The position numbers were made by a program. Source: Escherichia coli (GTDB lineage Bacteria > Pseudomonadota > Gammaproteobacteria > Enterobacterales > Enterobacteriaceae). From it: a DNA stretch of 64,000 nucleotides. This document shows, piece by piece, positions 51,301-57,300 of this stretch. Location: assembly GCF_050920415.1 (NCBI RefSeq), contig NZ_CP169309.1; one strand, written 5' to 3'. Numbering within the stretch: the first letter of the stretch is position 1; the number at the start of each line of letters is the position of its first letter.

Positions 51301-54300
51301 TTCTGTTCCTTCATACTCTGGAAGGATGGTCCAACGTCGGTATAGCACTCATAGCGACCGCGAATGTCGTTGAGTGTGACCACATTACCGGACTGGTAAT
51401 CTACAACTTGCGCGTAGAGTTGAACGTCTTTCTCGCTACCATCTTCAAGTGTCAGCGTTACATGACGAGGAACGTCATAAATATCATTGACCATTGAAGC
51501 ATAAATCTCGCCATCACGTCGCATTGCGGTAGCAAGGTTATCCTGAAACACGTATGTCTCAAGGTCTGCCCGCATGTTCAGTTGATTGACGGTATCGAAA
51601 GCGACCTGAGAGTTTGCTGCCTGCGCATCCACACCAAGACTAGCCACCTCTTTCACTGCGTTGGTGGCAGCCTCAAGCATGTAAGCGTTGGCTTGCGGCA
51701 CTTCAGGGTTTTCCATGTAGGAGATTGGACCAATCGGCAGGTCGTTGCCGTTTTCATCGGTCCTGTTCTGCAGATAGTACGGATAGTCATCATTTCCACC
51801 GTACATGTATTCGTAGCCTTCGATTTGCTCAGGGAAGAAGGTCGGTTTCTTCTTCGGTGAACGAGCAACAATATCGGCGTTGAATGACATGATCATGTTA
51901 CGAAGGCGTTGACCGTCTTTCGTCAGCCTTACCACTCCTTCGTAGCACTCCTTGTCACCAGCGAATGACCATTCGCCATATACTGGAACGATTGGAATAT
52001 GCTCTCCGGCTATCTTCTCGCGGTCTTTCAGTATCTGCGTGCAGGTGACGATCGACTTATACACACGCCGACGCTTCACCTTGCGCTCTGCTACCTTAAT
52101 GAATCCACGATTAGCCAGGTCGTCGATGACGTCTTTGATATCCTGCTGGTAATAGCTGACCGGCTCACCTGTCAGCGGGTCGCGGTAGATGAAGACTTTC
52201 TCTTTCTTCTCTTCGACCTCGTAATACTCAGCGACGTAGACGACATCATTCGATACCCACGGAAACAGCCATGTATCGTTTGGATTCTGGAAAGATGGCA
52301 GCGTGTCCGGATCAATACCGTAATCCTCTGCGAACTCTTTCCAGCCATTGCGCGACAAGGCGTTAATCACCGTGCAGTGCTTAGCGTCGCTCTTATCCAT
52401 CTGCTTGCTGTTGGCGTCCCATATGACGTGTGAGCAGGCTTCATGGATTGGCAGGCGTCGGATTACCTGATTGTTGCTTGTTGGATCGTTGTCTTCGTAC
52501 TGCGTGACCAGACGCCATGCACCAACGCCTGACTCTATCTGCTCACGAACGCCAACGTTAACGGCAATTTTTGCCGTATTATGGCGCATATCAGTACGAT
52601 ACATCCCCATCAGCACATCGGCAGCATCAGGATTAGCGCCGTCTTTTGGTCTGAAGAGAACATCGATAGGGTTCCGGCGCATCTCTGCGACCAGCTTCCT
52701 GACCACCGGGCGAACAACATCGAATTGTCCGCGATATTGCAGGGTGGTGTAGTTTGATAGCCAGTCATCCCATTGCGACACTCGGCTAAAATACAGGTCA
52801 TTTGTCGCCTCGGTTCTGGCTTCATCGCTCGCCATCCAGTCTGCGTCAAACTTACACAGAATGGAATTGAGTCTGTTTTCGTCGGCCATTTAAGTTCTCC
52901 GTGCGATGGGCCTGATTGGGGCTGGTATCTTTTTCTCTTTTGGCTTTTTGATGTCGCGCATCATTTTTGCGAAGCGGCGCATCATGTATGCATAGCGAAC
53001 GGCGGATAGCACGTCGTCGTTAAGCTTGACGATTTTCCCGTTTTCATCACGGTGATAGAGGCGGAACTCCTCAAAGAATGGCTCACAGGTGTTGAATACT
53101 TTGAAGCGACCGTCGAGCATCATGTCTCGCAATTCAGTGATGCCAGGCTCAACAGCGTTACCGCCATCAGGCCATGTCGCATGCTCCTGCAACATCATAA
53201 ATCCAGCGTCCGCATACTGCCCTTTGAGCTGCTCACCGCCGCCCTTCTCGTGCTGGTTTCCGTCATGAGGCCATGCGGTTGGCACTTTATGCGCCCATGG
53301 TTTAACAGCTCCCCACGCCTGAACGGCTGTCTTTTCTTTCGCCTTCCAAACGCGTGAAAGGTAGATTATGTCTGCGTCCTTATCCCACCAAAGCTGAACC
53401 TGCGCCTGCGGGTGATCCCATCCGAAATCCATACCGCCAATTACGTAGAAGTGATCAGGACACTCGAACGCTGACACTTAATCGTCTCTTCCGGTATCTG
53501 GAAGATTCGACCACTACCCATCGTAGGAATACCGCGAGCACGCGCCTCTCTCTCATGCTCAGGATAGGATGCGATGATTTGCTCTTTCTGCTCGTCGGTG
53601 TAGTGCTCAGCGTCATAGATGGTCATGTTGACCACTTTCTGAGACTTGCTGGGATTCTTCAGGAACTTGGTAACAACGTCAGACATCCCCATCAGCGGGG
53701 TAAACGTCAGAATTGAGAATTGCCCGTATTTGTTGGTACGGGTAAGACCTTCGCCATAAATGCTGTATGGTGGCTCTTCGTCAAACCACACGCCGTGGAT
53801 TGTGTCACCCTGCCAGCGAGCACGGCCTTGCGAGTATGGTTTGAAGTAGCAGATTGAAATGCCATCTTCAACGCCATCAGCCGTGTGATGCTTAACCAGA
53901 AGATGATCAACAAGGTTCGGAAAGAAAGGAGACTTCTTCCAGCTAATGATGTCTTCTTTCGGTATGGAACGTAGCCTGGCTCACCATTCTCTTCGATACG
54001 ACCGCACAGGATGCGTTGAGTCGTTTTGGTTACAGTCTCGTTTGTCTCTCCACCAATCCAGAAGACAACAGGCTCATAGAAACGCTTACCTTTCCACTCA
54101 CCGCCATATTTACCATCAGCAGGATAGCCTTTTGTGCCCGGATAACGACCGGTAAGGTGAAACGCGACTTCAGCAGCACCAGTAAATGACTTACCAAGCT
54201 GGTTACCAGCCATAAAACATCGCTCTGGATAGTCATGCCCGGCGTCGATGAACTCACGCTGCTTGCTGTATGGCGTAAATTCATATAGCAGGTGTGTGTT

Positions 54301-57300
54301 CCGGTAGTTCTCTTCTTCTTCGAGTAGCTCGAGCAACTCGATTTGCTCTTCGTCGCTCAGGTTATCAAGAATCGCGTCCAGTTCCACGGTTGAATAGCTC
54401 CTTGATACGAGAGCGCCGCTTATCGCGATCTCCCTTATCAGGTGTCACGTCTTCAACTTGCGACTGCTCTTTGAGGCCCAAATCACGGGCGATGATGTTA
54501 GCGTTGAGAAGGTCAGCGGCTGCGCCAGAGAATTTCTGGTCGTAGATGACCTGTTCTGCTCGCGTAACGACTTCAGATAAATCTTCTCGCAGGCGATATG
54601 TGCGCCATGTTTCAAGCGTCACATCAATGAACAGAGTGAGGCCGGTAATGGTCATCGCTCGCATCTTGGCGATAGGCTCTTGTATTACTTCACCCTGATA
54701 CGAGAACGCCTTCATCTCCCATAGCGGGTTAGCTTCCACCCACTCGAAGTATTCACAACAAGCAGCCCACAGCGCCTCAGGCGATTCGAATTTAGGATTT
54801 CGCCCATGACTACTGCGGGCCTCCCAAAATCGGTTGCCCTTTGGTGCTGCCATATTGATTATTTCCCTTCTGCTTGCTTATCCCATTCATCGCGGAATTT
54901 GGATGGGTTGTCGAAACCTTGAGTTGCCATGTTTATGCTCCGGTAGTGAACAGGTCTAACGCTTCCTTCGATTTACGCACCGCTTCGATAGTGCGAGATG
55001 TGAAGTCTGGATTTGCACCGCCATCGTTGTAGTGCAACTTGAACAATTCCAGTTTCAGTTGGTCAGCACCAATGAATGCAAAAGCTTCCTCTGCCGCTGA
55101 ATTGTTCTTAGATAGCAGTCGGTAAATTTCTAACTTGAACTTCTGTTCTTCAGTCATGGGAATAATCTCTGCCATTGTTGGCTCCGTTTATCCGTTAAAA
55201 GGGATATCAGTTAAGTTATCCCGTGTAGGGTATAAGCCATTATCAAAGCCACTATGTAGGGAATGGCTTTTGTGATGGCAATAAAAAAGGCCGCCTGAGC
55301 GACCTGTTAGTTGTTCACAACTTCCATTGAAGGTCCAGCATGTCGAAAAATGATCCGCATTTAGGGGGATTTTCCATTCTTGCCCTCTCTTCAGCAGCTT
55401 TGTAATAAGCCATTGGCCTTTTCACACCATCAGCACCAGTGATGTATTCAACGCCTTCCTTCGGATCTTGTTCACGGAAACCATCGCAACCTATTCCACT
55501 TGTTTATCATCGATTCAGTGGATGTCTTTCCATCAGTCCGCCACCACAAAGAATCTTTTTTGCCATAAGGCAGGAGGTTCATCTTTCAGTGGCTGCCAGT
55601 GTTATTTCCCCACTTACTGGCTTGGGTTGTTTCGCTGTACTGCCGTTAACTGGTGGCCCAGAATAAATTCCGGTTTCATTATCAAGCCCACCCATTGATG
55701 GGCTTTGTAATGACTACAGTAACGAACTGCACAATGCGCCTGTATTTCGAGGATGACGCCCAAATACGTTAATCTTCTCGCGAACGCTCTCACTACACAT
55801 TCGCTCTACAATTCGCCAAACAGCCTTTTCAGGTAAAAATTTCGGCGCTAGTGCTGAAATAGCACGCCACATACCCCGACTAAGCGAGCATGCTGTGCTA
55901 CCGAAACTAAAGATGGCGAACGAAATAGACGTGATAAACGCCCAGCACCCAGAGAGAAAAGTTGAGATGCGGTGATAAAGCTTAGTCATGTATTGCTCCT
56001 GTTTTTTGGTTTTCATCGCCCGATCATTTCAGGCATTGCGTCCTGATGTATTCCTGCAGGTAGTTAACCTGCGCGGTTATCTTGTCGATTCCACTTCTGA
56101 GACGGTAATAATTGAGTTCAGCATCTGCTGTAAGTCTTGGGCTTTCTCCATCGCCCATGCTGTTGGCTCCGGTCGTTGACTTTGCACAGGTGGCGGCGAC
56201 TTGCAGGCGCTTACGACCAGCAGAAACATCAGCACGGAGACTTTCGATAGTCGCATTAGCATCAGCAAGCTCCTTTGTGTATCTGGCGTCAAGTTCTGCT
56301 ACATCACGTTGACGCTTCTGCATGTCAGCGATTGTGGATGCGGCCTTATCGCGCTGTTCTTTGTAGGCGATGGCGTTATCACGGTAATGATTGACCGCCC
56401 ATGACAGACAGACGACGATGCAGATAATCAGAGCGGAGATAATCGCGGTGACTCTGCTCATACCTCAATCTCTCTAACCGTTCCGCCTGCTTCTTTGAAT
56501 TTTGCAATCAGGCTGTCAGCCTTATGCTCGAACTGGCCATAACCAGCGCCCGGCAGTGAAGCCCAGATATTGCTGCAACGGTCGATTGCCTGACGAATAT
56601 CACCGCGATCAATCATCGGCAAAGCGCCACGCTCCTTAATCTGCTGCAATGCCACAGCGTCCTGACTTTTCGGAGAGAAGTCTTTCAGGCCAAGCTGCTT
56701 GCGGTAGGCATCCCACCAACGGGAAAGAAGCTGGTAACGTCCGGCTGCTGTTGATTTGAGTTTGGGGTTTAGCGTGACAAGTTTGCGAGGGTGATGGAGT
56801 AATCAGTGAATAGCCCCCCGCCTACAATGACGTCATAACCATGATTTCTGGTTTTCTGACGTCCGTTATCAGTTCCCTCTGACCACGCCAGCATATCGAG
56901 GAACGCCTTACGTTGATTATTGATTTCCACCATCTTCTACTCCGGCTTTTTTAGCAGCGAAGCGTTTGATAAGCGAACCAATCGAGTCAGTACCGATGTA
57001 GCCGATGAACACGCTCGTTATATAAGCGAGATTGCTACTTAGTCCGGCGAAGTCGAGAAGGTCACGAATGAACCAGGCGATAATGGCGCACATCGTTGCG
57101 TCGATTACTGTTTTTGTAAACGCACCGCCATTATATCTGCCGCGAAGGTACGCCATTGCAAACGCAAGGATTGCCCCGATGCCTTGTTCCTTTGCCGCGA
57201 GAATGGCGGCTAACAGGTCATGTTTTTCTGGCATCTTCATGTCTTACCCCCAATAAGGGGATTTGCTCTATTTAATTAGGAATAAGGTCGATTACTGATA

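Follow-up and report, generated by a model that had tools for sequence, protein, structure and literature searches.

The subject of this study is a window of 64,000 nucleotides (nt) of Escherichia coli DNA, taken from contig NZ_CP169309.1 of RefSeq assembly GCF_050920415.1, and in particular the large terminase gene, terL, of the P22-like (Lederbergvirus) prophage that the window carries. As deposited, this gene is broken by two single-base deletions. The evidence strongly favors the explanation that the two frameshifts are consensus errors of the assembly, linked to sequence motifs and left behind in an unpolished long-read stretch, and that they are not mutations of the organism. They are part of a set of nine discrepancies, all of which lie within 12.2 kilobases (kb) at 44623..56796, a stretch for which no strand is assigned, while the remainder of 14326-64000 is identical to independent assemblies. 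The nine events are associated with a sequence motif, are confined to one region, and are absent from the independent assemblies in which the same prophage is found.

Results

The terL gene is split into three frames by two 1-bp deletions

The P22-type terL gene is on the minus strand at 54387..52890, and it was identified by alignment, by Pfam and by a match in PDB. It stands between terS (54365..54853, minus strand), a GP3_package gene that is intact and overlaps the start of terL, and the portal gene (52889..50723), which is the order of the late operon in P22-like phages. Its length is 1498 nt as opposed to 1500 nt in all intact relatives, and the listing of open reading frames (ORFs) showed that it is covered by three overlapping minus-strand ORFs, 54387..53707, 53791..53441 and 53477..52890, each in a frame of its own. 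When the gene was aligned with the intact 1500-nt genes of E. coli EN-1077, phage APC_JM3.2 and phage SPN9CC, two gaps of 1 base pair (bp) were found and no other gap. The initial annotation had described two single-base frameshifts, near 53968 and 53475, in a terminase gene spanning 52890-54387; that span is exactly the gene, and the two sites are within a few bases of the gaps that we observed at 53970 and 53470.

At the first site (53970..53971, minus strand) the references read CTACGGTTCC and the window reads CTAC-GTTCC, or in the short form TACGGTTCC and TAC-GTTCC, so that one G is missing at about 53970 and the remaining G is at 53970, after the residues GEPGY. This deletion is at about codon 140 in the ATPase domain, and in our table of events it is read at 53970 as GGAACCG in the reference and GGAAC-G in the window, a frameshift. 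At the second site (53470..53471, minus strand) the references read CAGCCGTTCGAG and the window CAG-CGTTCGAG, one C being missing at about 53470 and the remaining C being at 53470, after the residues IKCQ. This deletion is at about codon 306, at the beginning of the nuclease domain, and is read in the table at 53470 as CTCGAACGGC in the reference and CTCGAACG-C in the window, again a frameshift. At both sites homology resumes in the shifted frame, and therefore these are 1-bp deletions and divergence is excluded, just as the initial annotation had argued for this P22-type TerL.

All three fragments are collinear with the 1500-nt terL genes. Pfam families Terminase_6N (PF03237) and Terminase_6C (PF17289) match the identical intact TerL product, and residues 289-497 of TerL match the solved P22 nuclease domain, PDB 4DKW, with E = 5.8e-127. 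Thus homology to both domains of the TerL family and the position between terS and portal were found, and a single continuous ORF was not found in the gene as assembled. A megablast search with the terL region matched 113 phage records and 269 E. coli records, and among the matches listed the full-length relatives have 1703 bases where the window has 1701, except one that has 1702. The repaired TerL of 499 amino acids (aa) is listed as an exact protein in 576 blocks of the collection. Judged from its sequence, terL as written would be unable to encode a working terminase.

Near-identical copies in independent assemblies carry intact genes

Independent copies of the prophage were retrieved by exact look-up of its intact gp10-like protein (46302..47720). 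One of these, L009 (GCA_048027635.1), is a contig of 259 kb that extends from bioA and ybhB through the tailspike gene to the lysis region, with the prophage at the same attB junction; further copies are L010 (GCA_037967425.1), L011 (GCA_021088925.1), L012 (Logan DRR168434) and several shorter contigs. According to the initial annotation, its claim would fall if an independent assembly had a continuous terL ORF, and this is in substance what was found, as L009, L010, L011 and L018 (GCA_000194575.2) all carry an intact terL of 499 aa. The portal protein is 721 aa in these same four, and in every contig that covers them gp7 has its full 230 aa and endolysin its full 158 aa. Over the 19,917 aligned bp of the window and L009 the only differences are the events described here, to which L010 and L011 add the one at 56795. 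At each event every reference opposes the window, and L009 to L012 and L016 to L018 carry the intact bases at all sites that they cover. When the nine events were reverted, the window became 100% identical to L009 over 19,916 bp and to L011 over 13,032 bp.

The window outside the affected stretch was compared in the same way. L024 and L025 match positions 14326-36623 at 100% identity, as do L019, L020 and L021 for positions 58646-64000. What is left of 51045-64000 is spanned by L018, which has only three differences, all of them peculiar to L018. Contigs L024 and L020 are separate contigs of the assembly of L010, and they match the host flank and the early region exactly. Thus, the window alone has the lesions, and in its sister copies the genes are intact and the sequence is otherwise 100% identical. 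The junctions that the deletions leave had 0 matches in IMG/VR, searched with two patterns, and 0 in an exact search of the GTDB representative genomes, and exact look-ups of the products specific to the frameshifts, namely the TerL fragments of 226 aa and 195 aa and the portal fragment of 586 aa, found none on record. The source assembly itself did not turn up among the RefSeq complete E. coli genomes, in IMG/VR or among the GTDB representatives. As to L018 itself, it has 1-bp changes at 55877 and 62774, in homopolymers of C4 and G6, compared to the window and the other drafts, and these are probably homopolymer errors of L018.

Two other comparisons were discarded. A count of 152 private substitutions against four references that are 96-98% identical reflects the distance of those references alone, and it was superseded by the near-identical copies. 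The prophage of strain no107 (NZ_CP075374.1), which gave the best coverage among the complete genomes, has a frameshifted terL and portal too, but at other positions and with many more indels, and it shares none of the lesions. In that RefSeq complete genome the P22-like prophage (20000-44000 of the locus L006) has about 10 genes annotated as frameshifted, terL and portal included, and at least seven indel events are found in terL alone, at positions unrelated to those in the window; it looks more like a noisy long-read assembly than like decay.

The other lesions in the stretch

The nine events consist of six 1-bp indels and three substitution events. Beyond the two frameshifts in terL that had been noticed initially, there are four more, all private to the window: one of +1 in portal and one of -1 each in the gp7-like gene, in the endolysin gene and in a 56-aa ORF. 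The portal gene (50723..52889, minus strand) is 2167 nt compared to 2166 nt, and its 1-bp insertion at 51198-51199, where the plus strand reads CTCGA-CGCC in the reference and CTCGAACGCC in the window, results in a product of 586 aa. The gp7 and endolysin deletions surfaced in a survey of gaps against four references. In the gene for the gp7-like ejection protein (44305..44996, minus strand) the G of a GATC is deleted at 44864/44865, leaving -ATC and shifting the frame at about codon 44, and at 44623 in the same gene GATC is changed to GATT, which is synonymous. In the endolysin gene (56458..56933, minus strand; 476 nt compared to 477 nt) the C of a GATC is deleted at 56795/56796, leaving GAT- and a frameshift. 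The small 56-aa ORF (55315..55484, minus strand) is truncated by a 1-bp deletion at 55469, where the plus strand has GATCTT in place of GATCTTT, and this deletion adjoins the GATC. Finally, the coat gene (48503..49798, minus strand) has two substitution events that destroy GATC sites, CGATC to GAATC at 48892-48893 (D303H) and GATC to GATT at 49558 (D81N), and it is because of these that exact look-up of the coat protein of the window retrieved no record.

The events are associated with GATC and confined to one region

Five of the nine events destroy a GATC, the site of Dam, and a sixth abuts one. GATC bases make up 0.78% of L009, and the probability that at least five of nine events would fall on them is 3.6e-9. 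Of the true GATC sites, 5 of 25 were altered within 44.6-56.8 kb compared to 0 of 107 in the 36.5 kb verified outside it (Fisher p = 1.7e-4, or 2.7e-5 if the adjacent deletion is counted), and the 107 untouched sites include 29 that are elsewhere in the prophage. All nine events are in 12.2 kb of the 48.7 kb that were compared and none in the other 36.5 kb, for which P = 3.9e-6. At the G:C pair of GATC the change is C>T/G>A in both single-base substitutions and in one of the two bases altered at 48892-48893, and the other changes at GATC are losses of its G or C. Errors in homopolymers were ruled out as the explanation, since all 16 runs of 6 nt or longer in 36.3-57.7 kb are unchanged.

The three events outside GATC, which include both deletions in terL, all end up as GAACG. 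On the plus strand the 9-mer CTCGAACGC has two copies in the 64 kb, at 51194-51202 and 53463-53471, and is nowhere else in the window; one copy arises via the insertion in portal and the other via the second deletion in terL. This pair points to a context-dependent process, and together with GGAAC-G at 53970 it suggests that GAACG is a second error-prone context. The first deletion in terL is 6 nt from a CCTGG and is the only one of these three events that is near one.

The prophage and its chromosomal context

Positions 1-37137 of the window are E. coli chromosome, from ybiB through bioA to ybhB, and their alignment with strain MFDS1022581 (NZ_CP169399.1) shows 2 mismatches and 0 gaps. MFDS1022581 is free of prophage at this locus, ybhC following directly after ybhB, and its identity to the window stops at 37137, in the lambda attB core TTAGTATAAAAAAGC (37124..37138, no strand assigned) that forms the junction of host and prophage. 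The prophage extends from this junction to the end of the window, and along it come the acyltransferase and tailspike genes (37395-40486), the genes for the ejection proteins and those for tail and head, then portal, terL and terS, and after these the lysis genes and the nin region with the replication genes. A prophage is found between ybhB and ybhC at the lambda attB core in strain 88-3493 also. The two genes near the junction are an Acyl_transf_3 O-antigen acyltransferase-like gene (37395-38522) and the tailspike gene (38519-40486). The density of GATC is 1.6-2.1 per kb in the prophage (37138-64000), about half of the 4.0 per kb in the host flank (1-37137). A short tandem repeat of CTCTGG at 48290-48320 varies by 12 nt compared to L007, and many Logan and draft contigs stop in it, at 48266-48307, which makes it a recurrent breakpoint of assembly. 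In the host flank there are a type III effector (3498-5510), a SopA-like pentapeptide-repeat effector (17003-18566) and a SUKH-4 immunity cluster (24326-26623), which suggest a background of the attaching/effacing type of E. coli. At window positions 15363 and 25180 MFDS1022581 stands apart from the window and two independent drafts; at 15363, in clsB, it has GCTC where the others have GATC, its protein accession looks like a singleton, and the record may contain a motif-linked error of its own.

Discussion

The most likely explanation of the pattern is that nine context-specific miscalls in the late region at 44.6-56.8 kb break terL twice and portal, gp7, endolysin and a small ORF besides, as would be expected from basecalling of the nanopore type at methylated motifs, which may have been the sequencing technology in this case. 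It has been reported that modification of DNA gives rise to systematic nanopore errors that depend on the context and are biased toward C2T and G2A, with a drop in accuracy at the G and the C of GATC (PMC11610603), and that GATC accounts for about 80% of the sites prone to G2A errors in E. coli R10.4.1 reads (bioRxiv 10.64898/2026.01.14.699587). Errors in long-read assemblies are mostly near methylated motifs, and indel errors among them lead to apparent frameshifts (PMC12632941). What the window shows is an enrichment at GATC with the reported positions and types of change, and an absence of the changes from independent short-read assemblies. Because the rest of the window is clean, it would seem that the remainder was corrected and the stretch at 44.6-56.8 kb was left uncorrected. 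The stretch could have escaped polishing with short reads if, for example, it is a prophage module present in several copies, and short-read polishers commonly leave errors in repeats uncorrected (Polypolish paper, PMC8812927). In draft assemblies the module forms a separate contig of 13.6-14.2 kb, with the breaks at 43949/44690 and at about 58.0-58.3 kb, and it is common to other P22-like prophages such as L013. These breaks and this sharing fit a multi-copy module, a repeat status that we infer from the breaks of the draft contigs alone.

Several observations weigh against reading the frameshifts as consensus errors. The two deletions in terL are outside GATC, the nearest being 17 nt and 65 nt away, and they are implicated because they belong to the cluster and share the 9-mer, not on the basis of a known methylation motif. 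No motif was found for the three events of the GAACG type, for which we computed how far each lies from Dam and Dcm sites and looked for motifs of the EcoKI type and other gapped motifs by eye only. The literature is more explicit about substitutions at GATC than about 1-bp deletions there, and our search of it for indels at Dam sites found nothing specific. A duplication of the module in the source genome is putative, and with it the cause of the confinement to 44.6-56.8 kb; when RefSeq complete E. coli genomes were searched to see whether the module occurs twice in a genome, none was found to carry it above 97% identity. Finally, the intact copies are from sister isolates, that is, from cultures other than the source, and a real and very recent change therefore keeps a small probability.

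If the changes were genuine and very recent, terL, portal, gp7 and endolysin would be true pseudogenes and the prophage would be defective in packaging and in lysis. We regard this as unlikely. It is true that the changes stand in the deposited sequence, that other E. coli prophages, for example that of no107, have terL and portal annotated as frameshifted, and that repeated hits are expected in a gene that is already dead. But the prophage is otherwise equal, base for base, to intact copies in several isolates, which leaves virtually no time for neutral decay, and we see no selective reason for two hits in terL together with hits in portal, gp7 and coat. Moreover, nine events in 12.2 kb compared to none in 36.5 kb, five of them on GATC, with indels outnumbering substitution events two to one and with the same 9-mer made twice, fit no spectrum of spontaneous mutation known to us. 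In mutation-accumulation studies of E. coli, substitutions are far more frequent than indels, and the indels are mainly in homopolymer runs. Decay would be recognized by lesions shared by descent or by divergence in the background, and by a spectrum and placement compatible with spontaneous mutation, and none of these was found. Only a part of the initial conclusion, that without TerL the prophage cannot package DNA, stands: the gene as written would not make a terminase, but a genuine loss of packaging by the prophage is unsupported, since the motif-linked cluster of nine events looks technical.

The association with GATC and the confinement to one region are strong and non-random, as a site-specific enzyme would also produce, and they could be taken to mean that the structural module of the prophage underwent a real, region-restricted mutagenesis centered on GATC in vivo. 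Such a process might consist of nicking or cleavage at GATC by MutH or a GATC-specific nuclease in the course of an abortive induction, with error-prone repair afterwards, or it might be the counterpart in bacteria of repeat-induced mutation, directed at a module that has been duplicated. If true, it would inactivate a freshly acquired prophage in negligible evolutionary time. We consider it very improbable, and to our knowledge no regionally restricted mutagenesis at GATC of this kind has been described. Three of the nine events, both deletions in terL among them, are off GATC, the 107 GATC sites outside were untouched even though 29 of them are in the prophage, and C>T/G>A at the G:C pair of GATC is exactly the sequencing artefact that has been documented. 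It could also be proposed that terL is expressed by programmed ribosomal frameshifting and that the split ORFs are functional. The ORFs do overlap, and nothing more speaks for recoding. We give this hardly any credence, and it is effectively refuted by the fact that all relatives, near-identical copies included, have terL as one continuous ORF of 499 aa; in addition, the two shifts are in the same direction and 500 nt apart, and there are like lesions in portal, gp7 and endolysin.

Real frameshifts would make this a routine defective prophage of the P22-like group. With consensus errors as the explanation, the underlying object is probably an ordinary P22-like prophage at attB-lambda that is intact, and an element that would be scored as defective or cryptic on account of five pseudogenes is, as far as its sequence allows us to predict, most likely intact and inducible. 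The main value of these results is therefore a lesson in quality control. Indels of 1 bp and C>T/G>A changes on GATC that are gathered in one stretch of an otherwise perfect assembly are a flag for unpolished long-read sequence, which should be useful in surveys of pseudogenes and of the completeness of prophages, and the same caution is in order for the RefSeq records of no107 and of MFDS1022581, in the latter case with regard to the GATC in clsB.

The gene order terS-terL-portal in the window is that of P22, where gp2 is the large terminase, and of the E. coli Lederbergvirus phages APC_JM3.2, IME10 and SPN9CC. At the DNA level the terL of the window is 97-98% identical to terL of E. coli Lederbergvirus and 80-90% identical to that in most records of Salmonella phages of the P22 group. 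It differs from a P22-type terL in that its ORF lacks two bases and is thereby spread over three frames, and with these two restored its product is identical to a widespread protein of 499 aa. The nine events resemble nanopore methylation errors and residual errors in repeats in their focus on the G and C of GATC, in the C>T/G>A changes, in the 1-bp indels and in their restriction to a limited region of an otherwise perfect sequence, but unlike nanopore methylation errors three of them are in contexts of the GAACG type, for which our search found no methylation motif. The cryptic lambdoid prophages of E. coli K-12 are genuinely defective, and their typical lesions are large deletions and IS insertions that are shared by descent. 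The prophage in the window is like them in that its morphogenesis genes are interrupted and that, were the sequence true, it would make no particles. It is unlike them in that its lesions are private to one assembly, are only 1-2 nt in size and are linked to motifs, and in that the prophage is otherwise complete.

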